64,000 nt of DNA from an uncultured Anaerolineales bacterium (GTDB lineage: Bacteria; Chloroflexota; Anaerolineae; Anaerolineales; UBA4823): positions 2,293-66,292 of the forward strand of contig CALBUI010000166.1 in assembly GCA_937968125.1 (NCBI GenBank), read 5' to 3'. The translations under genes were made by a program, and so were the position numbers. Below, one piece after another: positions 18,402-52,676 of the stretch (positions are counted from its first letter, which is position 1; each line of letters begins with the position of its first letter). Below the pieces are notes generated by a model. The model did not search any database and was not told where the DNA came from. It saw nothing but the letters and a program-made list of their open reading frames with translations.

Positions 18402-18611
18402 TTATTCCGCCTCATTCTCAATCTGGCTGGCATAACATGATGAACTCGGATCCTCAAGAAATTCTTTCTGGCATACAGGCAGGCAAAAGAATACCCATTT
18501 GCCTTTATAGAGCGCACGCGGTGTATTGGTGACGAATTTTTCGGATTCACCGCAAGATGTTTTTATTTCGCTGCCAATTGCTGGCAAAGGGACCGAGTCA
18601 GTATCTCTCAA
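18402..18611 (-). CDS. YHS-domain-like small metal-binding protein
   Basis: SCGES...YKGKWVFFCLPVCQKEFLEDP resembles the YHS consensus (C-G ... Y.G.tYYFCS..C...F..nP). It is the last gene before the terminator. The TTG start is uncertain. Confidence 0.45.
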   Translation of the reverse strand: MRDTDSVPLPAIGSEIKTSCGESEKFVTNTPRALYKGKWVFFCLPVCQKEFLEDPSSSCYASQIENEAE

Positions 18612-18785
18612 TTAATCCTCAACCTGTATTTCTTCCAAGACTTCAAGATCCTTGTTTAAATTTCGCTGCCGGATGAGTAAACTGATCAAATAAATCAACA
18701 TCACGCCGAATATAATAGTATATCCCGCGATCATGTAGCTGGTCGTATTTGCGGGTCCTTCTTGTAAGAGGACTGATAATAACAT
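18612..18785 (-). CDS. ccmD: CcmD-family haem exporter small subunit (57 aa, below the ORF-track cutoff)
   Basis: Own translation: MLLSVLLQEGPANTTSYMIAGYTIIFGVMLIYLISLLIRQRNLNKDLEVLEEIQVED. It has a single TM followed by a basic/acidic tail, as in CcmD. RBS AAAGGA lies 8 nt upstream, immediately after the ccmC stop. Confidence 0.6.
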   Translation of the reverse strand: MLLSVLLQEGPANTTSYMIAGYTIIFGVMLIYLISLLIRQRNLNKDLEVLEEIQVED

Positions 18786-18797
18786 AATAGTTTCCTT

Positions 18798-19499
18798 TTA
18801 TTCCATGGTTTGCAGGCGCAGCTGCTCGACATGGTCGGCTTTTCTACCCAGGCGAATGCGGTGCCAGAACAAGTCAATGAATATGAAGGTGAAGGTGAGC
18901 AGGCTGAACATGAACGTCTGCGTCATCAAGGGGGACATATCGAAGGAGCCCGTTGCACTTGGATCACCACTGCCGATCACGATCGGGTGAATTGTGCGGA
19001 AAATCCTGGCTGAGAAGTAGGTCAGCGGGACGCTCAATGAGCCGACTATGGCATACACCGCTCCAAATCGAGCCCGGCGGTCCGGATCTTCAATCCCCTG
19101 GCGCAGCATCAGGTAGGCCAGATAGATCAATAGCATGACTGTTGCGGTGGTCAACCTCGGGTCCCAGGTCCACCATGTGTTCCAGATTGGGCGAGCCCAA
19201 ATGGCGCCAGTCACGATATTGATAAAAATGAACACGATGCCAATTTCAACGGCGGCCAGACCAACAATGTCCCACTTGCGATCCTTTTTTATCAGGTAGA
19301 TGATTCCAGCCACAGCAGCACCAATGAAACCAAGCATGCCTACCCATCCAGTCGCTACGTGGAAATAAAAGACACGCTGGACATCACCCATCACCGCTTC
19401 CTGGGGTGCGTAGAAAAAAACCATGTAAGTAGCGATGAGAAACAAGGCCACGGTGAACACATCCAGAACAGTTAGTAAGCGAGGTTTAGATTCTTCCAT
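18798..19499 (-). CDS. ccmC: haem exporter protein CcmC
   Basis: 233 aa polytopic protein with a tryptophan-rich WWD motif (WARPIWNTWWTWDPRL). Confidence 0.9.
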   Translation of the reverse strand: MEESKPRLLTVLDVFTVALFLIATYMVFFYAPQEAVMGDVQRVFYFHVATGWVGMLGFIGAAVAGIIYLIKKDRKWDIVGLAAVEIGIVFIFINIVTGAIWARPIWNTWWTWDPRLTTATVMLLIYLAYLMLRQGIEDPDRRARFGAVYAIVGSLSVPLTYFSARIFRTIHPIVIGSGDPSATGSFDMSPLMTQTFMFSLLTFTFIFIDLFWHRIRLGRKADHVEQLRLQTME

Positions 19500-19532
19500 T
19501 CTTCAACTCCAATAATGAATTAATTTTGTGGC

Positions 19533-20267
19533 CTATTCTTCAACCACGTAATCAAAAACCATGAATGCGACGGCGGAAAATATTATATCGTAGACGATCA
19601 GCAAGTTCAGCCAGGGGCGGATCAGCTCCATTTCACTGCCGTCCAGGAATCCCGTGCTGGCCTTGACCGCGGCCAGGATAACCGGGAGGACAACCGGGAA
19701 GAGCAGGATCGGCAGGAGGATATCGCGGGTGCGCGCCTGGACGGCCATCGCGGCCAACAAAGTGCCAACCGCTACATAGCCGATCGATCCCAATAATATC
19801 ACTACCAGTAATCCGAGATTTAACAGGTTAACGTTGTACAGCACACTGTAAATCGGTAAGACGATGATCTCCACCATCAGCATGAAGATCAAATTTCCCA
19901 GCGCCTTGCCGAAGTAAATCGAGCTGCGGTCAACTGGGGCCAGCAGCAAGCCATCCATGCAGCCGCGATCTTTTTCAACCGCCATTGAGCGGTTCAGACC
20001 CAGCGTACCGGCAAAGACGAAAATCACCCACAGCACACCCGCGGTGATCGTGGGATCACGTCGTGTGGCAGGATCGAGGTCCAGGGCAAAGTTAAAGATC
20101 ATGATCACCAGCAAGGCAAAGACCAGCATGGCCGAGATCAGCTCCCGGCTGCGCAGTTCGGCAGAAAGGTCCTTCCAAACTACTGCGCCCATGGCGCGCA
20201 AAAAGCTAGCCACTTTGCCAGCGTTTTTTTCACTTGCCAGGTATGAGGATTCGCGTTCGACGGTCAT
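19533..20267 (-). CDS. ccmB: haem exporter permease CcmB
   Basis: 244 aa with about six TM helices. The start overlaps the ccmA stop (ATGA), and it sits between ccmA and ccmC. Confidence 0.8.
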   Translation of the reverse strand: MTVERESSYLASEKNAGKVASFLRAMGAVVWKDLSAELRSRELISAMLVFALLVIMIFNFALDLDPATRRDPTITAGVLWVIFVFAGTLGLNRSMAVEKDRGCMDGLLLAPVDRSSIYFGKALGNLIFMLMVEIIVLPIYSVLYNVNLLNLGLLVVILLGSIGYVAVGTLLAAMAVQARTRDILLPILLFPVVLPVILAAVKASTGFLDGSEMELIRPWLNLLIVYDIIFSAVAFMVFDYVVEE

Positions 20268-20965
20268 GAACTTTGAATCGCCTGGCGATAAAAAGCTAAC
20301 AGATTGTTAGTTTCAATTTCGTCGCTATGGACAGAGGCAGTAATCACACCGCGTGAGATGACATCAAATCGGGAGGCCAGGTCGGCTGCTCGAGCCAGGT
20401 CGTGTGAGGTCATGACAACTGTGCGCCCACGCGCGGCCACCTCTCTTAAAACAGTATCCAACATGGCGCTCGCATCTTGATCCAAACCAGTGTGAGGTTC
20501 ATCAAACAGCATCACATCTGGATCATGGAGTACTGCCCGGCCGATCGCCAGGCGCTGCTGCATACCCCGCGAAAATGTACGCACCAGGTCTCGCCGGCGG
20601 GGGGTTAAGCCAACCAACTCCAAAACCTCCGCCACTCGCGCGGGCAAATCCTGAACGCCATACATGCGGCCATAAAAGCGCAGGTTTTCCTCCGAGGTCA
20701 AGTCGCCATATAAGAGCGGCAGGTGCGAAACGACACCCAATCGTCGCCGCACAGCTGCAGCCTGGTCAGGCAAGCGGTATCCGGCGATATTCACCCCACC
20801 CATCGACGGGCGCGATAGGGAAGCCAGGATGCGCAAGAAGGTCGTTTTTCCCGCGCCGTTCGGTCCGAGCAAGGCAACAAACTCACCCCGCTCCACGGAA
20901 AAATCCATCCCGCGCAGCACGGTCTTCAGCCCGAAGCGCTTGACCAGCTTACGTACTTTGATCAT
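20264..20965 (-). CDS. ccmA: haem exporter ABC ATPase CcmA
   Basis: Walker A GPNGAGKTT, signature-like FSRGMQQRL and Walker B MLFDEP. ATG 20965 (MIKVRKLVKRFG) is the natural N-terminus. The track ORF starts at an upstream TTG (21031). Confidence 0.85.
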   Translation of the reverse strand: MIKVRKLVKRFGLKTVLRGMDFSVERGEFVALLGPNGAGKTTFLRILASLSRPSMGGVNIAGYRLPDQAAAVRRRLGVVSHLPLLYGDLTSEENLRFYGRMYGVQDLPARVAEVLELVGLTPRRRDLVRTFSRGMQQRLAIGRAVLHDPDVMLFDEPHTGLDQDASAMLDTVLREVAARGRTVVMTSHDLARAADLASRFDVISRGVITASVHSDEIETNNLLAFYRQAIQSS

Positions 20966-21219: not shown

Positions 21220-21270
21220 CGGGAAAGCGCTTCTCGAAACAAAAGAATATCATCTTATATCTTGAACTCC

Positions 21271-23217: not shown

Positions 23218-23242
23218 CCAATAAATTAAATTTCCAAATAGA

Positions 23243-23794
23243 CTAAGCAAGAGCATTGCCGCATTTGGGGCAAAATTGGTCGGATTGCTGGACCGGACGG
23301 CCACACTGTGGGCAGAATCCTGCTGATTTGTCCTGCCTGGAGCGTCTTCGAGCGGCTAATTGAACCTCAACTTCATCATCCGCATCCACCAAAACGGGTT
23401 GTGGCTGTGGCATGGCTTCGGTCTCTGCAGCTGTGGAAGTAGTGATGCGTCGGGCGGCAATCGCTTCTTCGATTCGACGTTCAATTTCGTCCTCGCTGGT
23501 ATCCCCATTTAACTCATCCAGCCGGCGCAGGACCTCAGCCCCCTGAGCAACCAACCGTGCCCGTTGGCCGGCATAATCCTCGCTGGGGATCTTGCCCAAG
23601 GCATTATCGAAATCCAATTCTTCAAGCGCGGTCAGGACTCGATCGCGTTCCGCCAGCAGGGTTGAGAGTTCGTGTTCTTTTTGATCTGCTTCTGGAGTTG
23701 CGTTGACTGTCTCCGGGTTAAGTAAAGGTCGGGCGATAAACAAACCAATTAAAACCAGTAGAGCGAGCAGGAGTAGTACTGAGCCAATATCCAT
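23243..23794 (-). CDS. CcmI-like N-terminal module fused to a C-terminal zinc ribbon
   Basis: N-terminal TM, then LLAERDRVLTALEELDFDNALGKIPSEDYAGQRARL (CcmI/CycH-like helical motif). The C-terminus is FCPQCG...FCPKCG. It sits between ccmG and the cytochrome gene. Confidence 0.5.
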   Translation of the reverse strand: MDIGSVLLLLALLVLIGLFIARPLLNPETVNATPEADQKEHELSTLLAERDRVLTALEELDFDNALGKIPSEDYAGQRARLVAQGAEVLRRLDELNGDTSEDEIERRIEEAIAARRITTSTAAETEAMPQPQPVLVDADDEVEVQLAARRRSRQDKSAGFCPQCGRPVQQSDQFCPKCGNALA

Positions 23795-23847: not shown

Positions 23848-24459
23848 TTAATTTTGAACCGCAAGCAGGGGATCGATCATGCCTTGGATTTCAGCCAGGG
23901 ATAGAAAAGGCGAAATCTTAAACGCGGCCAGTTTCCCGTTTTTATCAATAATATATGTTTCCGGAACACCGCGAATGCGAAAAGCCTGGGAGATCTTCGT
24001 GCGCAGATCCGGGCCGTTGGGGTAGGTAATATCGAACTTCTCCAGATAGATTTGTGCTTCTGTTTCGGTATCAACATAATCGACACCTAGAAATACCACC
24101 TCGCCACCTGGCTCGTAAATCCGCCAGGCAGTCTCTAAATCGGCTGCTTCCTCCTCACAAGGTTTGCACCAGGAAGCCCAAAAATTCAATACGACAACCT
24201 TATCCTTAAGGTCGGCCAGGCTGATCTGCTCACCTTCGAATGTGGTCAGCGTGAAATCTGGTACCGTCTCGCCAACCGTAACCGGGCCCTCCTGGTTCCT
24301 CAGCATCCCGACAGCCAGCAATGCTAATAAGGCAAAAAGCCCGATCCAGGCGGCTAATGCCCCTACCGAAAAGTTTCTACCAAAGATGGCTACCTTTCTT
24401 TTTGACTTCTCTGGCGATTCAACGTTTTCCGGTTCAGGTGGGGTTGGTGTATCTGACAT
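23848..24459 (-). CDS. ccmG: thiol:disulfide oxidoreductase CcmG/DsbE (TlpA/ResA family)
   Basis: Membrane anchor plus a thioredoxin fold with the WASWCKPCEEE active site. Confidence 0.85.
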   Translation of the reverse strand: MSDTPTPPEPENVESPEKSKRKVAIFGRNFSVGALAAWIGLFALLALLAVGMLRNQEGPVTVGETVPDFTLTTFEGEQISLADLKDKVVVLNFWASWCKPCEEEAADLETAWRIYEPGGEVVFLGVDYVDTETEAQIYLEKFDITYPNGPDLRTKISQAFRIRGVPETYIIDKNGKLAAFKISPFLSLAEIQGMIDPLLAVQN

Positions 24460-24501: not shown

Positions 24502-25011
24502 CTACCGGCGCCGCAGTTCTTCCTCAATCCTGGCTGCATATTCGTCATCTTGTTCGGCAAAAGATTGAGATTCTTCCTCACTTACAGGTGGAACCTGCTT
24601 CCAGGCTTTCAGCGCCCGGTAGAGGATATATCCGCCTCCTACGATCGCCAGGGGTGGGATGATATATACCAACCAGTTCAAACCCCGAGCGGGAGGCGCG
24701 GCCAGCACCCGATCACCGTACTGGGCGACGAAATAGTTCTTGATCTCATCTTCTTTCCAACCCTCGGTCAGTTTCTCGCGAATCAATTCACGCCACTGGG
24801 TACAGGCTTGGGTGGGACAGACATCCAGGGGGATATTCTCGCAAACCGGACAGTATAGCTGCTTGGCGATTGCATTGACCTCATCATCAGTAGGACCTGA
24901 TGGAGATATTTCCTGGGCTAAGGCGCCATCCAATGGCAGTAGTATGCCTGTCAGGCTGATCAAGACCAATATCACATAAATGATGAAGAAAGAGCGTCGG
25001 TTAATCATCAT
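24502..25011 (-). CDS. ccmH: cytochrome c maturation protein CcmH/NrfF
   Basis: Signal peptide, LYCPVCENIPLDVC (CxxC) motif and a C-terminal TM. It overlaps the ccmF stop. Confidence 0.85.
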   Translation of the reverse strand: MMINRRSFFIIYVILVLISLTGILLPLDGALAQEISPSGPTDDEVNAIAKQLYCPVCENIPLDVCPTQACTQWRELIREKLTEGWKEDEIKNYFVAQYGDRVLAAPPARGLNWLVYIIPPLAIVGGGYILYRALKAWKQVPPVSEEESQSFAEQDDEYAARIEEELRRR

Positions 25012-27175: not shown

Positions 27176-27703
27176 TTAACCTTCACTTTGCCCGGGAACA
27201 GCCTCTTCATATTTCGTGGGGCATTTGAGCAGCAGTTCATCGGCGTAGAAGACCCCATCCTCCCCCATCTCGCCAGTCATGATGGCTTGTGCTTCGTGGC
27301 GCAGGAGATCGGGCTTGGGGCCGACATAAATCACTGGCATGCGCGTGCGGCCGGGATCATTGACCGCGTCATACAGGACTTTCGCCAATCCACCCTGGGC
27401 TTCGATCTCGCTGTTGTCCCCAGGTACGTGGGCGACGGTGAATTCCAGGGTCAGCGTCTCAACATCGTAGACGACCGTATCGCCGATCACCGCGCCAGAG
27501 ACGCGCACATCGCGGCCAATCTCACTGCCCTTTTTGTCCGCCAACTCATCCACAGTTAAAAAATACTGGGCGCTGGCCTGGGTGGAAGTGACGATCAAAT
27601 AAACAATTGCGGCTACAATCAGCAATCCCCCCACGATAAACTTGGCCCGCCCACCCGAACCTGCCTGGGTGGAAACGTCTTGTTCCAAATCTTGGTCTAC
27701 CAT
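27176..27703 (-). CDS. ccmE: haem chaperone CcmE, Cys-type (CxxxY) variant
   Basis: N-terminal TM and an OB-fold-like VRVSGAV...PDLLRHEAQAIMTG region. The C-terminal LLKCPTKYEE stands where the canonical LAKHDEKY sits (Cys codon at 27221-27223). Confidence 0.85.
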   Translation of the reverse strand: MVDQDLEQDVSTQAGSGGRAKFIVGGLLIVAAIVYLIVTSTQASAQYFLTVDELADKKGSEIGRDVRVSGAVIGDTVVYDVETLTLEFTVAHVPGDNSEIEAQGGLAKVLYDAVNDPGRTRMPVIYVGPKPDLLRHEAQAIMTGEMGEDGVFYADELLLKCPTKYEEAVPGQSEG

Positions 27704-41504: not shown

Positions 41505-41509
41505 TAAAA

Positions 41510-43723: not shown

Positions 43724-44420
43724 GATTGAACCACGCTGGGTGTTAATCGTAGATCTTGACCGCTGTACTGGCTGCCAGGCATGTGTGGTCGCTTGCCAGG
43801 CAGAAAACAATGTGCCTACGGTAGGTGAGCATGAGACGATAGAAGGACGTTGGTTGCACTGGATCCATATTGAGCGCTATTGGGAAGGTGAATATCCAAA
43901 TATCAAGGCGCGTTTTATGCCGGTCATGTGCCAGCAATGCACCGCAGCCCCTTGTGAACCAGTATGTCCCGTGTTTGCTACCTATCACACTCCAGAAGGC
44001 CTGAATGCCCAGATCTACAACCGCTGCATTGGCACGCGCTTCTGTGGAAGCGCCTGCCCATACAAAACTCGTACTTACAATTGGCTGCGACCTGAATTCC
44101 CTGAACCATTGCACGAGCAGCTCAATCCCGATGTGACCGTCCGCTCTCGTGGTTTGATCGAGAAATGCACGTTCTGCGTCCAGCGCATCAGGCGAATTGA
44201 AATTGAAGCCCATGCCCAGGGACGAGAACCAGTTGATGGCGAGATTCAACCAGCCTGTGTGCAAACCTGCCCACCTGATGCATTAGTCTTTGGTGACCTG
44301 AATGACCCAAGTAGCCGGGTCAGCCAGCTGGCGACGAGCCATCGATCTTTTAAACTCTTGGGCGAGCTTGGTACAGATCCGGGCGTGATTTACTTGAAAG
44401 GAGGCGAGACGAATGTCTGA
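43707..44420 (+). CDS. actB: ActB2/QrcC-like 4Fe-4S ferredoxin-type subunit
   Basis: CTGCQACVVAC, CQQCTAAPCEPVCP, CIGTRFCGSACP and CTFCVQR...C cluster motifs, typical of the CISM FeS subunit. Confidence 0.85.
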   Translation: MNLLAEIEPRWVLIVDLDRCTGCQACVVACQAENNVPTVGEHETIEGRWLHWIHIERYWEGEYPNIKARFMPVMCQQCTAAPCEPVCPVFATYHTPEGLNAQIYNRCIGTRFCGSACPYKTRTYNWLRPEFPEPLHEQLNPDVTVRSRGLIEKCTFCVQRIRRIEIEAHAQGREPVDGEIQPACVQTCPPDALVFGDLNDPSSRVSQLATSHRSFKLLGELGTDPGVIYLKGGETNV

Positions 44421-45834
44421 ATCAGAGGTATTAGCGTACCCTGAGGATAGTAGCGCTGCAGAATTCGAAGATCGCTTGCTGCTCGCCGAACGGACAAGCT
44501 CAGAGATCAATCAAGCTGTGCTCCAACCTATGTTTCGCACAAGTTGGAAGTTTTGGGCACTGGTGATATTTCTAAGCTTATTGGTGCTGTGGGGCCTTTT
44601 TGCCTGGGGATACCTAATATATTGGGGAATGGGCACCGCGGGTATCAATCGACCGGTTTATTGGGGCTTTTTTATCGCCACCTTCGTTTTCTGGGTCGGT
44701 ATCAGCCACGCAGGAACGATGATCTCCGCTGTGTTGCGCTTACTTAAAGCAGATTGGCGCAGACCCATCACGCGGGGCGCGGAGGCGATGACTGCTTTCG
44801 CGCTGATGATGGCTGGGTTGTTCCCATTCATCCATCTGGGCAGGGTGTGGAAATTCTATTGGATGCTCCCCTACCCCAATAACCGCTTAATGTGGCCAAA
44901 TTTCCAATCGCCTCTGATGTGGGATATGGTTGCCATCTTCACCTATTTTATTGGTTCGACCCTTTATCTCTATCTTGCTTTGATCCCGGACCTTGCTATG
45001 GCCCGCGATCACACAGGTAAATGGCGCCAGAAATTGTATCGAGTTTTATCTCTCGGATGGCGCGGCACGGAGGCAGAATGGCACAAGCTCCACCGTGCCT
45101 TGAGCATCTTTTCCGTGGCGATTATCCCGATTTTCCTCTCTGTCCACTCCATTGTGTCCTGGGATTTTGCAGTTACGATTCAACCTCGCTGGCACAGCAC
45201 AATATTCGCACCATACTTCGTGGTCGGTGCAATTTATTCAGGACTGGCTGCCCTTGCCTGCATCCTGGTCATCGTTCGCAAGGGAATGCAGCTGCAGGAA
45301 TTTTTGCGTTCTGAACACTTCGACGCATTGGGTAAATTGGTCCTGGTGGCAGGAATGGCCTGGGTTTATTTCTGGTTCGCCGGATTTATTGTTGAATGGT
45401 ATGGCAACGAACCCGTGACCCGCGAACTGATCCATGAGGAAGTCGCTGGGAGTTTGGCACCCCTCTTCTACCTGCAGATGTCTGCCAACCTGATTCCTAT
45501 CGTCATGCTTATTTTCAAGAAAGTTCGCACCACGCCTTGGTTATTGCTGGTGGCGACACTATTAGTGAATGTCGGCATGTTTACTGAGCGCGTGTTAATT
45601 GTAGTTGGCAACTTGCAGCGAAATTTCATGCCTTTCAATTGGGGTGAATACAGCCCAACTTGGGTTGAAGTGAGCATCGTGGTGATGACTTTCGCAGGAT
45701 TTGCGCTCCTATATACAATATTTTCCCGTATCTTCCCCTACGTACCGGTCTGGGAGATCAAGGAAGGCCGCCTGCGGTACACCGTACGCCGCATCGGTCG
45801 ATTATTAGTGCCAACCGCTGCTGAGATCGAGTAG
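44413..45834 (+). CDS. actC: ActC/NrfD/PsrC-like polytopic quinone-interacting membrane subunit
   Basis: 473 aa with about 10 TM helices. It immediately follows the FeS subunit with an overlapping start. Confidence 0.8.
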   Translation: MSESEVLAYPEDSSAAEFEDRLLLAERTSSEINQAVLQPMFRTSWKFWALVIFLSLLVLWGLFAWGYLIYWGMGTAGINRPVYWGFFIATFVFWVGISHAGTMISAVLRLLKADWRRPITRGAEAMTAFALMMAGLFPFIHLGRVWKFYWMLPYPNNRLMWPNFQSPLMWDMVAIFTYFIGSTLYLYLALIPDLAMARDHTGKWRQKLYRVLSLGWRGTEAEWHKLHRALSIFSVAIIPIFLSVHSIVSWDFAVTIQPRWHSTIFAPYFVVGAIYSGLAALACILVIVRKGMQLQEFLRSEHFDALGKLVLVAGMAWVYFWFAGFIVEWYGNEPVTRELIHEEVAGSLAPLFYLQMSANLIPIVMLIFKKVRTTPWLLLVATLLVNVGMFTERVLIVVGNLQRNFMPFNWGEYSPTWVEVSIVVMTFAGFALLYTIFSRIFPYVPVWEIKEGRLRYTVRRIGRLLVPTAAEIE

Positions 45835-45852
45835 CGGCTGAGGAATTTTCCA

Positions 45853-46380
45853 ATGAGTGAAAATGAAATTTCTCTGGTAGCCCTCTTTGAAAAAAGCACT
45901 GACACTGCCAAGGCGATTGACGATTTGCATACTCTGGGTATCCCGGATGACAGGATGGTGGTGATGACCGATGTACCTTATCCTGAACAGGCCTTAGGGA
46001 GAACCCGAGAATGGTCATCCTTACCCTATATCGTACTTGCAGGAGCAATCGTTGGGTTGCTTATAGGATTGTTCCTATCGGCCATCACGCCACATCTTTA
46101 TCGTCTGGACGTGGGCGGTCATCCTCCAGTCGGTTTTCCGCCCGCAGCGGTGATCACTTTCGTTTTCACGATGATGGCGATCATTGTATCGACATTTCTT
46201 GGTGTACTTTGGGAAATGGACTTCCCCAGTTTTGGTCCAGCCCCTTATCACAAAGCCGTCACAGACGGCCAGCTGGCGATACTCATAGAATTCTCCCCTG
46301 ACCTGGATGATAAAGTCAACCAGGTGCTTAAAGCCAACCAGGCTGATTACATCGGCGAACCGGAGATGATTTCGCTATGA
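45853..46380 (+). CDS. actD: ActD-like (DUF3341) membrane subunit
   Basis: 175 aa with a soluble N-domain (LVALFEKSTDTAKAIDDLHTLGIPDD) and two TM helices. The position after actC supports the call. Confidence 0.6.
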   Translation: MSENEISLVALFEKSTDTAKAIDDLHTLGIPDDRMVVMTDVPYPEQALGRTREWSSLPYIVLAGAIVGLLIGLFLSAITPHLYRLDVGGHPPVGFPPAAVITFVFTMMAIIVSTFLGVLWEMDFPSFGPAPYHKAVTDGQLAILIEFSPDLDDKVNQVLKANQADYIGEPEMISL

Positions 46381-46886
46381 GTCCTCGTTTGCAGCGTGGA
46401 TTACTCATAATTGCCGTCTTACTGACCCCGTTCATCGTCGGACTCTTGTTCACCTACGAGATCTTAAAAATCCCCTTTACCACAGACATGCAAAACCAGA
46501 TCTCAATAAATTACCAGGAAAGCCCTCGGATTTTGCCTCCTGATGGTGCCGTTCCCGTGCAAGGGCTGGCAATTATTCCTGATGAATTTCCAGTAAATCC
46601 GATTCCAGCGGATCCGGTCTCGCTGCAGCGCGGCAAAATTCTCTATGATATTCACTGTCAGTTATGTCATGGAGAAATGGGGCATGGAGATGGACCATTA
46701 GCGAAATATTTTGACCGCACACCCCAGAATTTGACCAGCTCCCAGATCACCACAGAATTCGATGGGGCAGTCTATTTAACGATATTGAATGGTTTTGGTC
46801 AGATGCCAGCCCTATACGAGAACCTGTCCCCTCATGAAACTTGGGACGTGGTGAATTATCTTCACACTCTGCCTGCGAGGGAATAA
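46377..46886 (+). CDS. actE: ActE-like membrane-anchored monohaem cytochrome c
   Basis: N-terminal TM and a single CQLCHGEMGHGDG class-I haem site. ATGA overlap with actD. Confidence 0.7.
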   Translation: MSPRLQRGLLIIAVLLTPFIVGLLFTYEILKIPFTTDMQNQISINYQESPRILPPDGAVPVQGLAIIPDEFPVNPIPADPVSLQRGKILYDIHCQLCHGEMGHGDGPLAKYFDRTPQNLTSSQITTEFDGAVYLTILNGFGQMPALYENLSPHETWDVVNYLHTLPARE

Positions 46887-46892
46887 GAAAAG

Positions 46893-47939
46893 ATGACAAA
46901 TAAAATCGCAATCTTATCCTCAACCATTATTTTGTTATTGACTGCTTGTGCCGCTCCTCAAAGCCTTCCTTCAGGTCCGACACCAATACCAACCCTCATT
47001 CCAGCCACGGAGCCAAGCGATCCTTTGACAGCAACAGCGGTGCCATCGTTTTCCATCCAGAGCTACCCTGCCGGGCTTCCCTCAGCTGAACTCGGCCAGG
47101 AGCTTTATCAGACAAATTGTGCAAGTTGTCACGGCGAGGACGGGAATGGAGTTGTGCCTGGTGCACGCAATTTTGGTGATTTGGATTATATGCGCGGAGA
47201 AACCCCCGCCTCTTTTTATTCAACGGTCACAGAAGGACGAGGTGAAATGGAGGGCTTTCGCGACTTAATGACCTCGGATGAGATTTGGGATGTCATCTTT
47301 TATGTATGGCGTTTTTCTACGGATGCTGAAACACTTGCCCTTGGAGGACACCTGTACGAAGCAAATTGCCAGGTTTGCCATGGAATGGATGGTACCGGGG
47401 AAGTATTGGGGGCCGCTGATCTCTCCGACCTTCGTTTTGTTGACAACCAGGCTCCCCGAGATTTCTACTTGATCACCACCCAAGGCAAAGGCTCGATGCC
47501 AGCCTGGCAGGGACGGCTTTCCCAGGAAGAACGCTGGGCAGTAATTGACTATGTGCGCACATTCTCTTATGACCCAACCATCCCAGGAGAAACTGTTGCC
47601 CAACCTCCTCCGACAGCAGCTGTCGAAGAAATCGTATGTGACCCGAATTACCTGGCACAAACTAACCCCTTTGATTGGAGTGATCCAGCTGTTTCCATCG
47701 CTGGTCAGGTGATTTATGACCAGGCCTGCGGTATGTGTCATGGAGTTGATGGCTCAGGCGGTATCCCAGGTACCCCTGATTACACCAAACCCGATATCAC
47801 GGAGGATTTACGCACCAATAGCGGTGAAAAATTATGTATTGTTGCTGAGGGCAGTAAATCAATGCCTGGATGGAAAGAGACGCTTACCGATCAGCAAATG
47901 TGGGAGGCGCTAACTTACATCTATTCATTCGGAAAGTAG
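46893..47939 (+). CDS. trihaem (3 x class-I cytochrome c domain) lipoprotein
   Basis: Lipobox LTAC, then CASCHGEDGNG, CQVCHGMDGTG and CGMCHGVDGSG, each followed by a distal Met region (SMPAW/SMPGW). Confidence 0.8.
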   Translation: MTNKIAILSSTIILLLTACAAPQSLPSGPTPIPTLIPATEPSDPLTATAVPSFSIQSYPAGLPSAELGQELYQTNCASCHGEDGNGVVPGARNFGDLDYMRGETPASFYSTVTEGRGEMEGFRDLMTSDEIWDVIFYVWRFSTDAETLALGGHLYEANCQVCHGMDGTGEVLGAADLSDLRFVDNQAPRDFYLITTQGKGSMPAWQGRLSQEERWAVIDYVRTFSYDPTIPGETVAQPPPTAAVEEIVCDPNYLAQTNPFDWSDPAVSIAGQVIYDQACGMCHGVDGSGGIPGTPDYTKPDITEDLRTNSGEKLCIVAEGSKSMPGWKETLTDQQMWEALTYIYSFGK

Positions 47940-47985: not shown

Positions 47986-48093
47986 AACTGGATCTACATC
48001 GCTCACGAGGATGGCAGCCTGGGAGTCCACAACCCGGCTTACACTAGGGACTTGCTCGACGCATCACTGGAAACATTGGGGTTATGGGGATAG
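47986..48093 (+). pseudogene. 36-codon remnant of the 3' end of a paralogue of the hexahaem cytochrome gene
   Basis: About 93 percent nucleotide identity by eye to 49622-49730. It translates to NWIYIAHEDGSLGVHNPAYTRDLLDASLETLGLWG*, against NWIYIAHEDGSLGVHNPAYTRALLDASLETLGLGGQ* in the intact gene. The frame is closed by TAG at 47977 with no start. Confidence 0.75.
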
Positions 48094-48488
48094 TAATAGT
48101 CCCTTCTGACGAAAATTTAGTTCGGCAACCACACATTATCACATAACTGTTGTGCAAGTTTCTATCATCAGCTTGCACAGTATTGTTTTAATAGTGTGTC
48201 CTTTTTCAAACCCAGGTGAACTAACCCAATGCGAACGAACAAATTGGAATTGCAACGGGCAGCTTCAATTGACAGCTACACCTTTGAGTTTAATGACCCT
48301 AACATGATAACAAATAGGAAAACCGTGCGCGACAAAGAATACCCCTCCCGGATCGGATCGAATCAGCCATACTGAAATTACACAACTTAGTTAAGTGCTC
48401 TTCCTACTTCTTCTGAAGGATGAGAGGAGAAACTCAATACATTTGTCACAGCGGGAAAAGTGACATATAATACTAATACTATATTCAT

Positions 48489-48654
48489 AATTGGGTTATA
48501 AATCTTATGTAAAACTACCCAATTCGTAACTGACATCATAGGGGGGTAGCGGGTAGTCGTATTCCCATTGAAAAACAGAAAGGAGGTTGCCTATCAGCTT
48601 ATAGAAGAAAAAGATCGCCCCCAATATCATTGTAGAAAGTGTATCCGGATACAC
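48489..48654 (+). promoter_or_regulatory. conserved upstream/leader region of the hexahaem gene (inverted repeat, TATAAA box, 16-bp palindrome)
   Basis: AATTGGGT (48489-48496) ... ACCCAATT (48517-48524) flank GTTATAAATC. GTGTATCCGGATACAC lies at 48639-48654, 14 nt before the ATG. The block is duplicated at 50230-50395. Confidence 0.5.
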
Positions 48655-48667
48655 ACAAGGAGAATGC

Positions 48668-49730
48668 TATGAAACATAAACATCTTTTGGTGGTGCTCTT
48701 GCTGCTGGTAGTCATGGCTCTGGCTGCCTGCGCAGGCTCCCAAGGCGAGCAGGGCGAGCAAGGTCCTCCCGGTCCCCAGGGTGAGCAAGGTTCCCCAGGG
48801 CCTGAAGGCCCTCCTGGACCTGAGGGTCCGGCAGGCGCCGCCGGTGCCGATGCCGAAATGGGCGACCTGACCTGCACGGAGTGCCACAACGACGGCACGG
48901 AGCTTGCTGGGAGGGCAACCGCCTGGGCTGATTCCGTGCATGGAATGGGTGAAGCTTATGTGCGTGGAACCCGTGCCAGCTGCGCTGGTTGTCACTCCGG
49001 CGGCGGCTTCAGCGCCAAGGTGGCTGCAGGTTTGAACCCGGACGAGGTTGAAGCAGGGGATCCAAACCCCACTCGCCAGGACTGCCGTGCCTGCCACCAG
49101 ATCCATGTGACTTACACAGGTGAAGACTGGGCATTGGAGACCGAAGACCCGGTGGATTTCTATGCTTTTGAAGGTGTGACCTACGATGGCGGCGATGGCA
49201 ACCTGTGCGCCAACTGCCATCAGCCAAGGCGCGGAATTGCTGAGCCAGATGCCGATGGCAATATCGAAGTCACCAGCACGCACTGGGGACCCCACCACGG
49301 TGGGCAGGGCTCCATGTTGATGGGCGTGGCTGGCTCGCCTGATGTCGAAGGCAGCCCCAGCTCGCATGCCACAATGGTGGAAGATACTTGCGTTGCCTGT
49401 CACATGGGAGAGGAATATAACCACTCCTTCGAACCTGAGGTGGAGCGCTGCCAGGAATGCCACACTGATATGGAAAGCTTCGATGACACCGGCTTGCAGA
49501 CCGAGGTCCAGGAGAAGCTGGATCAACTGGAAGCAGAGCTGCTTGCCAGGGGTTGGCTTGATGAAGAAGGTCACCCGGCGGTAACGTTCGTTCCCGCTCC
49601 AGAAGCTTACGCCCTATGGAACTGGATCTACATCGCCCACGAGGATGGCAGCCTGGGAGTCCACAACCCGGCTTACACCAGGGCATTACTCGACGCATCA
49701 CTGGAAACATTAGGGTTGGGAGGGCAGTAA
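48668..49730 (+). CDS. hexahaem c-type cytochrome lipoprotein with collagen-like Gly-X-Y stalk
   Basis: MKHKHLL signal, lipobox LAAC, 13 GXY triplets and 6 CxxCH (CTECH, CAGCH, CRACH, CANCH, CVACH, CQECH). RBS AAGGAG precedes ATG 48668. The track ORF start at 48639 lies inside the conserved leader. Confidence 0.85.
48734..48850 (+). repeat. collagen-like region, 13 uninterrupted Gly-X-Y triplets
   Basis: GSQ GEQ GEQ GPP GPQ GEQ GSP GPE GPP GPE GPA GAA GAD, starting two residues after the lipobox Cys. Confidence 0.85.
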
Positions 49731-49881
49731 AAGAGGCAATTGATTCTGGCTTTTTTGCTATATTGTAATCAGGCCAAATCTCCTCGACATCAATTTACTG
49801 GATATCGGTGGAGATGTCTCCGGGAACATGAAACCGGCAGTAACACTGTAACCAACAACACTATCATCACCCACTGAATCA

Positions 49882-49913: not shown

Positions 49914-50229
49914 TTCCATTTCACTCTTCGGAAACCGAATTCTCCTTTAATTGTACATCTCTAATACAAATCATTTTTCTTTGAACTTGTATTTTAGGAT
50001 GAATTGCTTGGAATGTTGCACCAACAAATTCAATCCTCTGCCAAAGTAATGATTGGCATTGCAATTGGTTACACCAATTTCATCCACAAGGATTGGATCT
50101 AATCAAGTACTCTCAAAACTAAAATTCAACCTGACCCAAAATCAATATTTCCTGTTTCATAGAGGATGAAAGTTACAATACATTCGTCACATCTTGAAAT
50201 GTGACGAAATTCACTAATTTAATACTCAT

Positions 50230-50395
50230 AATTGGGGTATAAATCATATGCAAAGTTACCCAATCTAGACCTGGCAGCGAATGGGGGTTGCCGGGTGCTA
50301 GCTGCTATTGTTGAAGAACAGGAAGGAGGTTGCTTATCAGTCAATAGAAGAAGGAACGCCCTACATCTTATTGTCAGAAGTGTATCCGGATACAC
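50230..50395 (+). promoter_or_regulatory. conserved upstream/leader region of the decahaem gene (paralogous to 48489-48654)
   Basis: AATTGGGG ... TACCCAAT flank GTATAAATC. GTGTATCCGGATACAC lies at 50380-50395, 15 nt before the ATG. A further upstream palindrome TCGTCACAT-CTTGAA-ATGTGACGA lies near 50184-50207. Confidence 0.5.
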
Positions 50396-50409
50396 TCAAG
50401 GAGAATGAT

Positions 50410-52608
50410 ATGAAACACAAACATCTTTTGGTTGGGCTCTTGCTGCTGGCAGCTGCCATGGCTCTGGTAGCCTGCGGCACCCCCAGCCCGACTGCAGAGG
50501 CCACACCCTGTCCCGAAGCACCGCCCTGCCCGGACTGTCCTGAGGCACCAGCTTGCCCGGACTGCCCAGAATGTCCAGAGCCGGAAGTTGCGTTGGTACC
50601 CTTCGAGGAAGAGTGGGCCAATTCCCCCCACAACGATGCGGAAGCGGAAGCTTTCACCCACTGGGATGAGGATGATCCTGCCGAGATTCCCCCCAACTGT
50701 GCCAAGTGCCACAGCACTCCGGGCTACATTGCCTTTATGGGCGCTGATGGCAGCGAGTTTGGCGTCATTGAGGGACCCGCCCCGATCGGCACCACCGTCG
50801 AGTGCGCGGCCTGCCACAATGAAGCTACCTTGGATCACGACAGCGTGGTCTTCCCCTCCGGTCTTGAATTGACCGATATGGGCGACCAGGCACGCTGCAT
50901 GGAGTGCCACCAGGGTCGTTCGTCCAAGGTGACCGTGGATGAGAACATCGCCGAAGCAGTTGGCGAGGATCTCGACACGGTTAGCGAAGACCTGGGCTTC
51001 ATCAACATCCACTACTACGCGGCCGGCGCAACCCGCTACGGAACCGAAGTGAAGGGTGGCTATGAGTATGATGGCCTGGAGTACGATCCCCGCTTTGACC
51101 ACGTCGAAGGCTACCAGTCCTGCATCAACTGCCACGACATGCACACCCTCGAGCTCAAGCTTGAAGAATGTGCAGTCTGCCATGAAGGCGTAGCCAGTGT
51201 CGAAGACGTTAAGGCGATCCGCTTCGTCGGCTCGCTGAACGACTACAACGGCAACGGCAACGTCGAAGAATCGATCATGGCTGAGATGGCTGGCCTGCAG
51301 GAACTACTCTACCAGAACATCCGGGCTTACGCCGCGGAAGTAGCTGGCTCGCCGATCGTTTATGATTCGCACGCCTATCCATACTTCTTCATCGACACCA
51401 ACGCCGATGGCGAAGCCGGTGAAGATGAAGCCAACTACGGAAACCAGTACGCTTCCTGGACCGGACGCCTGCTGCAGGCCGCGTATAACTACCAGGTCTC
51501 GCAGAAGGATCCCGGCGCATATGCCCACGGCGGCAAGTACATCATCCAGCTGCTCTACGACTCGATCGCCGATCTGAACGATCAGGTCGCCAGCCCGGTT
51601 GACATGACTCCCTTGCACCGCGAGGACCCGGGTCACTTCGCCGCATCTGGTGAACCCTGGCGCCACTGGGATGAGGATGGTGAAGTTTCGGCCAGCTGCT
51701 CCAAGTGCCACTCGGCTGAAGGTCTACCCACCTTCCTGACTACTGGTGGAGATACATATCCACAGCCGGTCGCCAGCGGCTTGAACTGCGCTTCCTGCCA
51801 CGACGATCTGACCACCTTCACCCAGTACCCCTCTGAGGAAGTTGAATTCCCCAGCGGCGCAGTGGTGACGTTTGAGGATCCCACAGCCAATCTGTGCCTC
51901 AACTGCCACCAGGGTCGCCAATCCGGGCCGGGTGTGGAGGCGCGCATCGTTTCTTCAGGTGCTGCTGATGATGAAGTATCTGCATCGCTTTCATTCAGCA
52001 ACCCGCACTACTTCGCTGCCGGAGCAACGCTGTTCGGCACCGAAGTTCAGGGCGCCTATGAGTTCACGGGCCAGTCCTACAACGGCCGCTTCATGCATGT
52101 CCAGGGTTTCCAGGCCTGCATCGAATGCCACGACACCCACGAGCTGAAGGTCAAGGTCGACCAATGCGGTACCTGCCACGGCATCTCCAGTGAAGAAGAA
52201 CTGCATGATATCCGCATGACGGATGTCGACTTCGATGGTGATGGCGACACTTCTACAGGTATCGCAGTGGAAGTGATGAACGTCAATGATGCCATCTTGG
52301 ATGCCATCTACGTCTACGCTGCTGAAGTAGCCGGTACACCGATCGTCTTCGAAAGTCACTCTTACCCCTATTGGTTCGTTGATACCAATGGTGATGGCGT
52401 GGCTGACCCAGATGAAGCTCAATATGCCAACCAATACAATGCATGGACCCCGCGCTTGCTGCGGGCGGCATACAATTACACCTGGGCTCTCAAGGATCCC
52501 GGCTCGTACGCTCACAATGGGCTGTATATGCTCCAGGTTCTCTACGACACCCTGCAGGATATCGGTGGTGATGTCTCTAGCATGACCCGCCCCGCAGTGG
52601 CCCAGTAG
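50410..52608 (+). CDS. decahaem c-type cytochrome lipoprotein (2 x pentahaem internal duplication) with N-terminal Cys-Pro hinge-like repeat
   Basis: MKHKHLL signal, lipobox LVAC, and CPEAPPCPDCPEAPACPDCPECPE. 10 CxxCH (CAKCH, CAACH, CMECH, CINCH, CAVCH, CSKCH, CASCH, CLNCH, CIECH, CGTCH). The two halves are alignable by eye. Confidence 0.85.
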   Translation: MKHKHLLVGLLLLAAAMALVACGTPSPTAEATPCPEAPPCPDCPEAPACPDCPECPEPEVALVPFEEEWANSPHNDAEAEAFTHWDEDDPAEIPPNCAKCHSTPGYIAFMGADGSEFGVIEGPAPIGTTVECAACHNEATLDHDSVVFPSGLELTDMGDQARCMECHQGRSSKVTVDENIAEAVGEDLDTVSEDLGFINIHYYAAGATRYGTEVKGGYEYDGLEYDPRFDHVEGYQSCINCHDMHTLELKLEECAVCHEGVASVEDVKAIRFVGSLNDYNGNGNVEESIMAEMAGLQELLYQNIRAYAAEVAGSPIVYDSHAYPYFFIDTNADGEAGEDEANYGNQYASWTGRLLQAAYNYQVSQKDPGAYAHGGKYIIQLLYDSIADLNDQVASPVDMTPLHREDPGHFAASGEPWRHWDEDGEVSASCSKCHSAEGLPTFLTTGGDTYPQPVASGLNCASCHDDLTTFTQYPSEEVEFPSGAVVTFEDPTANLCLNCHQGRQSGPGVEARIVSSGAADDEVSASLSFSNPHYFAAGATLFGTEVQGAYEFTGQSYNGRFMHVQGFQACIECHDTHELKVKVDQCGTCHGISSEEELHDIRMTDVDFDGDGDTSTGIAVEVMNVNDAILDAIYVYAAEVAGTPIVFESHSYPYWFVDTNGDGVADPDEAQYANQYNAWTPRLLRAAYNYTWALKDPGSYAHNGLYMLQVLYDTLQDIGGDVSSMTRPAVAQ
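50509..50586 (+). repeat. Cys-Pro-rich hinge-like segment (six CP dipeptides in 26 aa)
   Basis: CPEAPPCPDCPEAPACPDCPECPEPE, located where the paralogues carry the collagen-like stalk. Confidence 0.8.
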
Positions 52609-52643
52609 ATTTTTCTACCGAAGTTGTTCGTTAGCAAAAAAGG

Positions 52644-52676
52644 ACCAGGTGCTCACAAGAGCACCTGGTTTTTTGT
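52644..52676 (+). terminator. rho-independent terminator after the decahaem gene
   Basis: 11-bp stem ACCAGGTGCTC / GAGCACCTGGT with loop ACAA, followed by TTTTTTG. Confidence 0.75.

Follow-up and report, generated by a model that had tools for sequence, protein, structure and literature searches.

A conserved 34-kb cytochrome cluster of an Anaerolineales bacterium encodes OcwA/NrfA-type multihaem proteins on predicted lipid-anchored, collagen-like stalks

Where do the electrons go that a bacterium draws from its quinol pool into a row of multihaem cytochromes, if no conventional terminal enzyme is encoded nearby? The question is raised by a 64,000-nucleotide stretch of DNA from an uncultured Anaerolineales bacterium (contig CALBUI010000166.1, positions 2,293 to 66,292 of the forward strand; hereafter the window). 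A gene cluster of ∼34 kb within it (18402-52676) carries cytochrome c maturation (ccm) genes on the minus strand and cytochrome and respiratory genes on the plus strand (30.2-52.6 kb), as delimited by the open reading frame (ORF) list and by Pfam and NCBIfam matches. We refer to it as the island, by which only the gene cluster is meant; a horizontally acquired genomic island was considered and rejected, as the GC content (0.45-0.56) is like that of the flanks and synteny of the cluster extends to a relative. The island appears to be a self-contained, co-localized respiratory module of a putative monoderm-type Anaerolineae bacterium, and we read it, with moderate confidence, as an outward conduit that would carry electrons from menaquinol to extracellular or cell-surface acceptors. 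What leads us to this reading is the homology of the encoded cytochromes to OcwA and OmhA, the two reductases of Gram-positive extracellular electron transfer with known structures, a conserved stalk that is restricted to Chloroflexota, the all-bis-His signature of the cytochromes MHC10 and MHC6, the repeated linkage to quinol dehydrogenases, and the absence from the surroundings, in two genomes, of any conventional terminal enzyme.

The island proteins contain 56 CxxCH motifs, one Cx3CH motif (CGTACH), and one Cx4CH motif (CSNSACH), distributed over 11 proteins that include a sensor kinase (two motifs) and a dihaem protein within the ccm cluster. The two extended motifs both lie in NapC9, a NapC/NirT/NrfH-type membrane-anchored cytochrome. 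An earlier note on this DNA, made from its letters alone, had counted 57 CxxCH and one Cx4CH in 11 proteins; the number of proteins and the Cx4CH stand, and our recount gives one CxxCH fewer and the additional Cx3CH. Shuffling the island proteins 1000 times yielded a mean of 0.07 CxxCH and a maximum of two, so that a chance origin is excluded for the CxxCH density. The genes outside the island (8,475 amino acids) hold two CxxCH, and no island protein has a CxxCK motif.

We compared every called gene of the window with Pfam and NCBIfam, applying the family cut-offs. No gene matched a haem-copper or bd oxidase, a Nar, Nap, Nir, or Nos catalytic subunit, or a β-barrel porin or pilin family, in agreement with the earlier note, which had recognized no terminal oxidase, N-oxide reductase, porin, or pilin in the window. 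A porin–cytochrome system of the Mtr or Pcc type was rejected on the same grounds, because no porin family was matched by any of these genes.

Five of the haem proteins are predicted lipoproteins, MHC8, MHC5, MHC3, MHC6, and MHC10, with 8, 5, 3, 6, and 10 haems, respectively, just as the earlier note had described them. All five possess a lipobox (LAAC, LAAC, LTAC, LAAC, and LVAC) that predicts lipidation. MHC8, MHC5, and MHC6 carry 13, 10, and 13 unbroken Gly-X-Y triplets, respectively, that start one residue after the lipobox cysteine. The Pfam Collagen family (PF01391, cut-off 27.2 bits) scores 29.4 bits for MHC8 and 30.7 bits for MHC6, both above the cut-off, and 21.3 bits for MHC5, below it.

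MHC10 has, in place of the collagen-like stalk, a Cys/Pro-rich linker, PCPEAPPCPDCPEAPACPDCPECPEPE (50506-50586), with six cysteines in CPxC/CPE repeats. The linker is kept in the chromosome of the relative (CP070764.1) and is rare across the wider MHC10 family; the MHC10 homologues of two other Anaerolineae loci (L010 and L011) carry (ETVEVTRVVEV)n-type linkers instead. It is reminiscent of an immunoglobulin hinge and could form inter-chain disulfides or bind metal. A GXY-like run on the opposite strand (50505-50576, minus) was rejected as a further stalk, being merely the antisense of this linker.

The stalk is a conserved feature, shared by hundreds of homologues from Chloroflexota. In 25 homologues of MHC8 (66-86% identity), the nine Gly columns of the stalk register are invariant. 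Lipobox and stalk occur together in 110 of the best 120 database matches of MHC8 and in 102 of the best 120 of MHC6, where the stalks are mostly 9-15 triplets long and ∼80% begin one residue after the cysteine. In a scan with one genome per species, each of the 11 full-length Chloroflexota loci had the stalk, and the homologues of Gemmatimonadota, Nitrospirota, Planctomycetota, Gammaproteobacteria, and Methanoperedens lacked it. The MHC8 homologues from outside Chloroflexota align only from residue ∼70 onward; their signal peptides are of the ordinary kind, and a GXY run is missing. Four small genes whose products have prepilin-type N termini (GFTLIELLVV-like) come after one of these unstalked octahaem homologues, that of a Nitrospirota metagenome-assembled genome (MAG; locus L021, 1284-3205).

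Streptococcus Scl1/Scl2, Bacillus BclA, and Legionella Lcl likewise combine an unbroken Gly-X-Y tract with a globular domain in an envelope-tethered protein, and the island tracts match the Pfam Collagen family as well as Scl, Lcl, and BclA models or chains. The tracts of Scl, BclA, and Lcl assemble into a trimeric stalk from which the head projects. The island tracts are much shorter (10-13 triplets), and a triple helix is a prediction here. With the collagen rise of 0.286 nm per residue, 10-13 triplets would span ∼9-11 nm if triple-helical. Further differences to the known proteins are the N-terminal lipid anchor, as opposed to an LPXTG or basal-layer attachment, and the head, which is a multihaem cytochrome.

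The head of MHC8 is a homologue of OcwA (PDB code 6I5B), which it matches with an E value of 1.7e-18 as a single sequence (phmmer) and of 3.2e-20 as a family profile. The alignment comprises residues 62-258 of MHC8 and 6-198 of OcwA and covers the first four haems, whereas the remainder aligns weakly. Weaker matches of the profile are OmhA (2e-8) and MccA (6e-8). Compared with the OcwA type, which has nine haems, two of them open and faced by a His-His pair, MHC8 has eight CxxCH and a single HH motif (H272/H273) that is conserved in 19-23 of 26 sequences. Among the 26 diverse family members, seven non-motif histidines are conserved for the eight haems. The HH pair resembles the pockets over the two open haems of OcwA, which makes an accessible haem or a catalytic site possible. 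An AlphaFold2 model of MHC8 from 25 close homologues gave a pLDDT of 37.

Two modules, 44% identical to each other (E value 6e-99), make up MHC10, whose family comprises about 1,500 cluster representatives. MHC6 has a single related module on a collagen-like stalk and >1768 homologues, mostly from Anaerolineales MAGs. An AlphaFold2 model of MHC10 from a deep alignment reached a pLDDT of 96.3, and Foldseek ranked OcwA first among PDB structures (probability 1.0), followed by OmhA (0.75) and then by NrfA structures. The long C-terminal helices of the model complete the combination of pentahaem core and helical C-terminal domain known from NrfA. The MHC10 family profile also matches NrfA of G. 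lovleyi (PDB code 6V0A) with an E value of 1e-8; module haems 2-5 are aligned, and the NrfA loop with the catalytic histidine (RHPE) falls inside a gap.

Across 169 modules from the MHC10 family, the five CxxCH are invariant or nearly so, together with exactly five additional histidines, and CxxCK is absent from all 169. Because of these five extra histidines and the missing CxxCK, the MHC10 and MHC6 modules probably serve electron transfer alone, with five bis-His haems and no NrfA-type active site. We therefore rejected MHC10 as a genuine NrfA, given that it lacks CxxCK, has five invariant distal His candidates, and scores below the cut-off. Indeed, no island protein matches the Pfam NrfA family (PF02335), and none reaches the NCBIfam cut-offs for NrfA, NrfH, Otr, MccA, or Hao.

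The same relationships bear on a different reading, in which the heads are tethered reductases of soluble substrates. MHC8, with NapC9 as an NrfH-like partner, and possibly MHC10 and MHC6 would then reduce nitrite, hydroxylamine, NO, sulfite, or tetrathionate, and the island would be a pathway of unusual composition, like dissimilatory nitrate reduction to ammonium or acting on sulfur oxyanions, for respiration or detoxification. We consider this unlikely. MHC8 does belong to a clade with OcwA, MccA, and c554, and its HH motif and seven conserved distal His candidates for eight haems would fit an enzyme, as would the N terminus of NapC9, which matches NrfH (TIGR03153, 62 bits, E value 5e-17, below the cut-off of 134). 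The pentahaem alignment of the MHC10 modules (NrfA haems 2-5), the long C-terminal helices, and a reductase-like gene beside a NapC/NirT-type gene are common to the island and NrfHA, and in Bermanella, too, a small NapC/NirT-like gene comes after a homologue. Moreover, any extracytoplasmic enzyme of a monoderm needs a tether, so the lipid anchors prove nothing. However, MHC10 differs from NrfA not only in the missing CxxCK, the fifth invariant distal histidine, the unaligned catalytic-His loop, and the scores below the cut-offs but also in its tandem modules and its lipid anchor. OcwA itself turns over nitrite only about once per minute, and a 10-nm stalk of conserved length would be left unexplained by soluble substrates.

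For the outward conduit, the closest likeness is the chain of Thermincola potens and T. ferriacetica, in which a single-membrane cell employs serial multihaem cytochromes of the membrane, the periplasm, and the wall that end in the surface nonahaem cytochrome OcwA, likewise with no porin–cytochrome complex. MHC8 is homologous in sequence to the N-terminal half of OcwA, and OcwA is the best fold match of the MHC10 model. However, MHC8 has eight haems instead of nine, the C-terminal halves diverge, the quinol dehydrogenases differ from those of Thermincola, and the phylum is Chloroflexota as opposed to Bacillota. Homologues of the remaining Thermincola cytochromes were not seen, with no search aimed at them. 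The island proteins are predicted to be lipid-anchored on collagen-like or Cys/Pro linkers, whereas the mature N terminus of OcwA has been sequenced (EKPAD); we know of no report of a lipoprotein or a collagen-like linker for OcwA. OmhA of Carboxydothermus ferrireducens (PDB code 6QVM), a surface-exposed terminal reductase of a Gram-positive cell, belongs to the same superfamily, as seen from the MHC8 profile and from the second-best fold match of MHC10. OmhA is an S-layer cytochrome with 11 haems, in contrast to the lipid anchor, the stalk, and the 8, 6, and 10 haems of the island proteins.

The earlier note had likened the layout to the wall-spanning extracellular electron transfer (EET) of Gram-positive metal reducers. 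Structurally, this likeness is sustained by the OcwA/OmhA relatives and the missing porin; EET as the function is what we infer. The note did not mention the collagen-like stalks, the haem c sensor kinase, or the modular make-up, of the NrfA/OcwA type, of the 6- and 10-haem proteins. Its second comparison, that the component set is unlike the Mtr, Pcc, and Omc systems, holds at the level of the system but not for every protein, as three lipoproteins exceed the cut-off (30 bits) of the Pfam family for domains II/IV of MtrC/MtrF (PF22113; MHC8, 38.3; MHC6, 40.1; MHC5, 30.5). Matches of island proteins to the NCBIfam models of OmcA/MtrC are far below the cut-off.

Three modules encoded in the island are predicted to be quinol:cytochrome c oxidoreductases of different types, each exposing a haem c chain on the outer face of the membrane; a NapC/NirT anchor, a Rieske/cytochrome b complex with a heptahaem fusion, and a complex like alternative complex III (ACIII) or Qrc had all been named in the earlier note and were found again. 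NapC9 scores 43 bits against PF03264 (cut-off 24.1). It has one N-terminal transmembrane (TM) helix, an NrfH/NapC-like tetrahaem start, and a PSCyt1-like monohaem tail (33036-33320). The second module comprises the Rieske 2Fe-2S protein, the N-terminal part of cytochrome b, and the C-terminal part as subunit IV; PF10399 is a further Pfam family within this complex. The heptahaem fusion of subunit IV (704-710 amino acids) recurs in the Anaerolineae loci L007, L087, and L089. It also ends in a PSCyt1-like tail, 36% identical to that of NapC9, and the same tail ends CbcL-like cytochrome b/multihaem proteins of relatives. This sharing of the tail across modules suggests a common exit or docking domain of the quinol dehydrogenases.

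Parallel quinol oxidizers that feed extracytoplasmic multihaem chains are also known from Geobacter, where ImcH, CbcL, and CbcBA serve EET at the inner membrane. CbcL-like fusions of multihaem c and cytochrome b561-type parts, alike by architecture only, occur in the related loci L009 and L010/L011, whereas no CbcL-like gene is found in the window, where the modules are of the NapC/NirT, Rieske/cytochrome b, and ACIII-like types.

The third module, ActAB1B2CDE, is best described as a predicted hybrid of ACIII and Qrc, with the ACIII-specific subunits ActD and ActE and with B1 and B2 split as in Qrc. Pentahaem ActA, the molybdopterin-like and 4Fe-4S modules, the NrfD-type subunit, ActD, and ActE are shared with the ACIII of Rhodothermus, Flavobacterium, and Chloroflexus/Roseiflexus. 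The neighbors of the island complex are stalked or lipoprotein multihaem cytochromes instead of an oxidase or auracyanin. ActF, the second NrfD-like subunit, was found neither within 40989-47939 nor in CP070764.1. The split B1 and B2 genes are common to the island and to Desulfovibrio Qrc (QrcABCD), but ActD and ActE are not part of the four-subunit Qrc, and ActA has five haems instead of the six of QrcA. The scores against the Qrc models are below the cut-offs (QrcA, 108.8 bits, cut-off 180; QrcB, 312.9 bits, cut-off 440).

Qrc is a menaquinone reductase, and with ActA, B1, B2, and C closest to the QrcA and QrcB models and B1/B2 split in the same way, electrons might also run inward or in both directions, from Fe(II), cathodes, or partner cells into the quinone pool, with the Qrc-like complex as menaquinone reductase in a lithotrophic or syntrophic metabolism. 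Multihaem chains are reversible in general, and EET in both the anodic and the cathodic direction is known from Ardenticatena maritima, an isolate of the Chloroflexota. ActD and ActE, specific to ACIII and absent from Qrc, the Qrc scores below the cut-offs, and the lack of any Cyc2-, MtoA-, or PioAB-type gene in the window speak against this reading; sequence alone gives no direction of flow. In our judgment, inward or bidirectional transfer is rather improbable.

The nearest genomes are uncultured Anaerolineae, Anaerolineales, and Chloroflexota MAGs, and the island sequence also occurs on metagenome contigs. In a closed 4.5-Mb chromosome (CP070764.1), the complete gene order of the cluster, ccm through MHC10, is retained, with 68-92% amino acid identity. 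No terminal reductase or oxidase is encoded there in the 6 kb beyond MHC10, which hold glycoside hydrolases. MHC5, in which a multihaem part is joined to a C-terminal class I domain (PF13442), is 81% identical to its syntenic homologue in that chromosome. MHC6 is tandemly duplicated there; these paralogues are 68-71% identical to MHC6 of the window and 26-30% identical to MHC10. The remnant upstream of MHC6 in the window matches residues 321-353 of the second tandem paralogue, which is intact in CP070764.1.

Elsewhere, the stalked cytochromes are found with other partners. The Anaerolineae loci L010 and L011 have a four-gene cassette of MHC8, a 14-haem protein, cytochrome b, and MHC10, with no ACIII or bc complex, and L009 and L015 combine MHC8 with an MHC-FeS-NrfD module, a CbcL-like fusion, and NapC9. 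As MHC8 thus stands beside differing quinol dehydrogenases, these appear to be interchangeable, and the recurring unit would consist of stalked or lipoprotein OcwA/NrfA-type cytochromes and some quinol dehydrogenase.

This recurrence also bears on a conventional explanation, an ordinary branched chain in which menaquinol is oxidized by the ACIII-like and Rieske/cytochrome b complexes and tethered cytochromes replace soluble carriers to haem-copper oxidases or denitrification enzymes encoded elsewhere. The cytochromes c550 and c551 of Bacillus are tethered in this way in place of soluble periplasmic carriers, and single-membrane bacteria normally anchor their c-type carriers as lipoproteins. 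The class I cytochrome c domains of MHC3, ActE, and subunit IV (seven in the latter) give CcoP/c550/c551-like matches, and the Anaerolineae genome RBG-9 encodes ActABCDE, two PetAB complexes, and a caa3 oxidase (Hug et al., 2013). We nevertheless regard an ordinary chain as quite unlikely. Stalked OcwA/NrfA-type heads with 8, 6, and 10 haems are not usual carriers to oxidases, the window and the 6 kb beyond MHC10 in CP070764.1 lack genes for an oxidase or N-oxide reductase, and the minimal cassettes pair MHC8 and MHC10 with a dedicated cytochrome b/multihaem quinol dehydrogenase, without ACIII or bc.

As an outward conduit, the island might work as follows. Menaquinol would be oxidized by NapC9 and by the Rieske/cytochrome b and ACIII-like complexes, which would pass the electrons to the five lipoprotein cytochromes. 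The collagen-like stalks, beginning one residue after the lipidated cysteine, would hold MHC8, MHC5, and MHC6 off the membrane and, if triple-helical, would trimerize the protein and set the haem heads ∼9-11 nm out; MHC10 would use its hinge-like Cys/Pro linker instead. The MHC10 and MHC6 modules would carry electrons, and MHC8 may also bind small substrates. Likely acceptors would be Fe(III)/Mn(IV) minerals, humics, electrodes, or partner cells. A more specific version of the conduit is tentative and, to us, possible but doubtful: lipid-anchored cytochromes that trimerize via a short collagen helix into “lollipops,” with 18-24 haems ∼10 nm above the membrane, served by interchangeable quinol dehydrogenases through a PSCyt1-type exit domain and controlled by a haem c kinase. 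Under this version, stalk length would be a ruler matched to the thickness of the envelope, and ARMA_0580 of Ardenticatena would be a member of the family.

Several points weigh against an outward conduit. OcwA reduces nitrite and hydroxylamine, as reported in the OcwA paper, and the OcwA/NrfA/MccA superfamily is known mainly for soluble N- and S-oxyanion enzymes, with enzymes of nitrite, sulfite, and hydroxylamine among its members. The MHC8–NapC9 pair mimics the pairing of NrfA with NrfH, and the incomplete set of extra histidines in MHC8, together with its HH motif, leaves room for a catalytic site. The Foldseek matches of the MHC10 model are weak (OcwA, E value 0.017, target template modeling score 0.34; range of the scores 0.26-0.34). 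With 13 triplets free of hydroxyproline, a triple helix may be only marginally stable, and the stalk could be a mere flexible spacer. Finally, ACIII and Rieske/cytochrome b serve oxygen respiration in related Anaerolineae genomes (Hug et al., 2013), and oxidases may lie elsewhere in this genome.

The minus-strand part of the island is the System I cluster that the earlier note had called full (ccmABC(D)EFGH, 18.6-27.7 kb, by Pfam), which could mature the ∼58 haem c sites of the island. Gene boundaries follow the gene calls on an identical metagenome contig (L001). The CcmD candidate (18612-18785) has no Pfam or other profile match, and no TPR-type (tetratricopeptide repeat) CcmI was seen in the ccm cluster. 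CcmE reads CPTKY (residues 161-165; 27209-27223, minus strand) where the haem-binding motif HxxxY is expected, which we take to be the Cys-type variant known from archaea and Desulfovibrio. The Cys-type Ccm system of archaea and Desulfovibrio is known as one without CcmH; in the window, unlike in that system, a ccmH gene accompanies the Cys-type CcmE. Between ccmA and ccmG lie a dihaem lipoprotein and a Zn-ribbon protein, a pair that occupies the same position in L015 and in CP070764.1. A third protein, just past the island (53063-53992, minus strand), ends in a Zn ribbon of similar sequence (46% identity over 26 amino acids). At the other end, where the range of the earlier note begins, an ORF of 69 amino acids (18402-18611, minus strand) shows a weak match to a YHS-like, metal-binding motif (21 bits, below the cut-off).

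Two NarL-type two-component systems are encoded in the island, as the earlier note had stated, and both pairs consist of a HisKA_3 kinase and a REC-GerE regulator. System 1 adjoins the MHC8 gene also in L015 and L089. The kinase of system 2, HK2, looks like a dihaem c redox-sensing kinase. Its outer domain (36892-37359, 156 residues) lies between TM helices 18-36 and 193-211, shows weak sCache/Tll0287 matches, and holds both CxxCH motifs, which are conserved in the homologues of L034 and L005, next to cytochrome genes. The top PDB match of this domain is the haem c sensor GSU0935 (3B42), a match that is not significant (E value 0.21). Geobacter GSU0935/GSU0582 (3B42/3B47) and Tll0287 bind covalent haem c in a PAS/Cache-like extracytoplasmic sensor, as proposed for HK2; the Geobacter sensors differ in having one CxxCH and a chemoreceptor output, as opposed to two CxxCH and a NarL-type kinase output. 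The 112-residue receiver-like protein encoded after system 2 is conserved in L034 and CP070764.1 and is probably a pseudo-receiver, perhaps an adaptor, as the context of the phospho-acceptor is apparently replaced (LIEELEG). The two NarL-type systems probably set the expression of the conduit, one of them by dihaem c redox sensing.

A region of ∼300 nucleotides, comprising upstream sequence and signal-peptide coding sequence, is duplicated before MHC6 (48435-48732) and MHC10 (50176-50476). It contains a near-consensus promoter-like site, TTGTCA-17-TATAAT (48443-48471), a palindrome TGTCAC-N10-GTGACA over the -35 element, and a perfect 16-nucleotide palindrome, GTGTATCCGGATACAC, a few bases before the ribosome-binding site. 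Both palindromes are conserved in five copies from two genomes, including CP070764.1, and copies lie upstream of three L085 genes; they are probably an operator and/or a hairpin of the 5′-untranslated region. A comparison of the duplicated 5′ regions with Rfam gave no RNA family, the only Rfam match being the riboswitch outside the island that is described below, and promoter and terminator scans were overall at background level.

Some flanking genes complete the window. Four kilobases from the island, an ATP-binding cassette transporter operon (54095-56824, minus strand) encodes a permease, an NMT1/THI5-like binding lipoprotein, and an ATPase. A flavin mononucleotide (FMN) riboswitch (Rfam RF00050, 94 bits; 56909-57092, minus strand) lies upstream of it, and the operon is probably a riboflavin/FMN-regulated uptake system; any tie to flavin-mediated electron transfer would be pure speculation. 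At 895-2160 (minus strand), two adjacent ORFs have one CxxCH each, and the upstream one matches only the first half of the CCP/MauG model; they may be a split or frameshifted gene of a dihaem peroxidase of this type. The genes upstream of the island (4067-14654, plus strand) encode a 2039-residue bacterial α-2-macroglobulin and a 1273-residue protein with DUF5060 and Collagen_bind_2 (10833-14654). The latter was rejected as a partner of the stalks, because the Pfam family goes with glycoside hydrolase-like proteins; its name is presumably a misnomer.

Table 1. Positions of the island's genes and other elements in the window, with the matches or features on which each assignment is based
Feature	Position	Strand	Basis
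CcmD candidate, 57 aa with one TM helix, just downstream of ccmC	18612-18785	-	position and size
ccmC	18798-19499	-	PF01578, 1e-29, 104 bits
ccmB	19533-20267	-	PF03379, 2e-29, 103 bits
ccmA	20264-20965 (longest ORF to 21031)	-	PF00005, 3e-29
Dihaem lipoprotein, 661-677 aa, large non-haem domain, TM helix, acidic tail	21271-23256/23304	-	two class I cytochrome c domains, lipobox LSAC
TM, coiled-coil, and Zn-ribbon protein	23243-23794	-	inside ccm cluster
ccmG-like thioredoxin	23848-24459	-	PF00578/PF08534 (AhpC-TSA/Redoxin), TM anchor
ccmH	24502-25011	-	PF03918, 2e-23, 82 bits
ccmF	25008-27065/27092	-	PF16327, 6e-56, 190 bits; PF01578
ccmE	27176-27703	-	PF03100, 2e-22, 80 bits
Response regulator, NarL-type system 1	27806-28498	-	REC, GerE
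Histidine kinase, NarL-type system 1, polytopic membrane N terminus	28518-29981	-	HisKA_3, HATPase_c, TM scan
MHC8, octahaem lipoprotein	30239-31501	+	8 CxxCH; lipobox Cys23; 13-triplet stalk 30311-30427; OcwA-like head
NapC9, NapC/NirT/NrfH-type membrane-anchored cytochrome	31614-33323	+	7 CxxCH, Cx3CH, Cx4CH
Rieske protein, Tat signal	33427-33915	+	PF00355, CTHLGC...CPCH
Cytochrome b	33917-34576	+	PF00033, 4e-48, 164 bits
Subunit IV fused to seven monohaem c domains	34579-36699	+	PF00032, 42 bits; PF13442 x5; 7 CxxCH
Histidine kinase HK2, NarL-type system 2	36784-38298	+	HAMP, HisKA_3, HATPase
Response regulator, NarL-type system 2	38288-38941	+	REC, GerE
Receiver-like protein, 112 aa	39091-39429	+	PF00072, 18 bits, below cut-off
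MHC5, pentahaem lipoprotein	39572-40906	+	5 CxxCH; lipobox Cys22; 10-triplet stalk 39641-39730
ActA, pentahaem	40989-41504	+	PF14522, 5 CxxCH, TM helix
ActB1, molybdopterin-like, Tat signal	41501-43723	+	PF00384/PF04879/PF01568
ActB2, 4Fe-4S	43707-44420	+	Fer4 families
ActC, NrfD-type	44413-45834	+	PF03916
ActD	45853-46380	+	PF11821, 75 bits (cut-off 25.7)
ActE, monohaem, TM helix	46377-46886	+	PF13442
MHC3, lipoprotein	46893-47939	+	PF13442 x3, 8e-43; lipobox LTAC; Pro-rich linker
3′ remnant of lost second MHC6 copy	47986-48099	+	89% identical to 49620-49733, 114 nt
MHC6 upstream region proper	48435-48668	+	direct repeats D2, D3, D5, D6
MHC6, hexahaem lipoprotein	48669-49730	+	6 CxxCH; 13-triplet stalk 48735-48851; single-module head
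MHC10 upstream region proper	50176-50409	+	direct repeats D2, D3, D5, D6
MHC10, decahaem lipoprotein	50410-52608	+	10 CxxCH; linker 50506-50586; modules 50590-51597, 51598-52605

Multihaem cytochromes, ActABCDE, PetAB, octa- and decahaem proteins, and possible EET in Anaerolineae have been described before (Hug et al., 2013; Arbour et al., 2020; West-Roberts et al., 2021), and Anaerolineae are treated in published work, including Hug et al. (2013) and Arbour et al. (2020), as single-membrane cells without porin–cytochrome genes. EET by multihaem cytochromes in Anaerolineae has thus already been proposed, and the general idea is not new. Ardenticatena maritima is an electrode-active iron reducer with a surface cytochrome, ARMA_0580, a protein of 430 amino acids with seven CxxCH and an N-terminal anchor. 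ARMA_0580 has been shown to be expressed, bound to the membrane, and exposed at the surface, where antibodies reach it, and it runs at 74 kDa instead of the predicted 48 kDa. ARMA_0580 resembles MHC8 in size and haem count, which we take as a lead only; no named Ardenticatena protein is among the 120 matches listed for a Promineifilaceae homologue of MHC8. In the searchable literature, we found no paper that combines collagen-like domains with multihaem cytochromes and nothing relevant that links OcwA to Chloroflexota; one automatic annotation of the Joint Genome Institute (JGI) lists both collagen and multihaem domains. As far as this literature shows, OcwA/NrfA-type heads on lipid-anchored collagen-like stalks are new, as are the shared PSCyt1 exit domain, the dihaem sensor kinase, and the conserved 34-kb arrangement.

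Anaerolineae rank with the most abundant bacteria of sediments, aquifers, digesters, and anode biofilms, and EET has repeatedly been suspected from their multihaem-rich genomes, with no molecular pathway defined. The conserved island offers a concrete parts list of quinol dehydrogenases, tethered cytochromes, and regulators, and it makes an unusual, readily testable structural prediction, a collagen-like trimeric stalk between a lipid anchor and an OcwA-like head. If true, this would be a third architecture for crossing the envelope, beside the porin–cytochrome complexes and the wall and S-layer cytochromes of Thermincola and Carboxydothermus, and the combination of a lipobox, a GXY stalk, and a CxxCH-rich head would be a marker for electroactive Chloroflexota in metagenomes. 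If the heads are instead reductases of N- or S-oxyanions, the cluster would stand for a new, tethered kind of oxyanion reductase.

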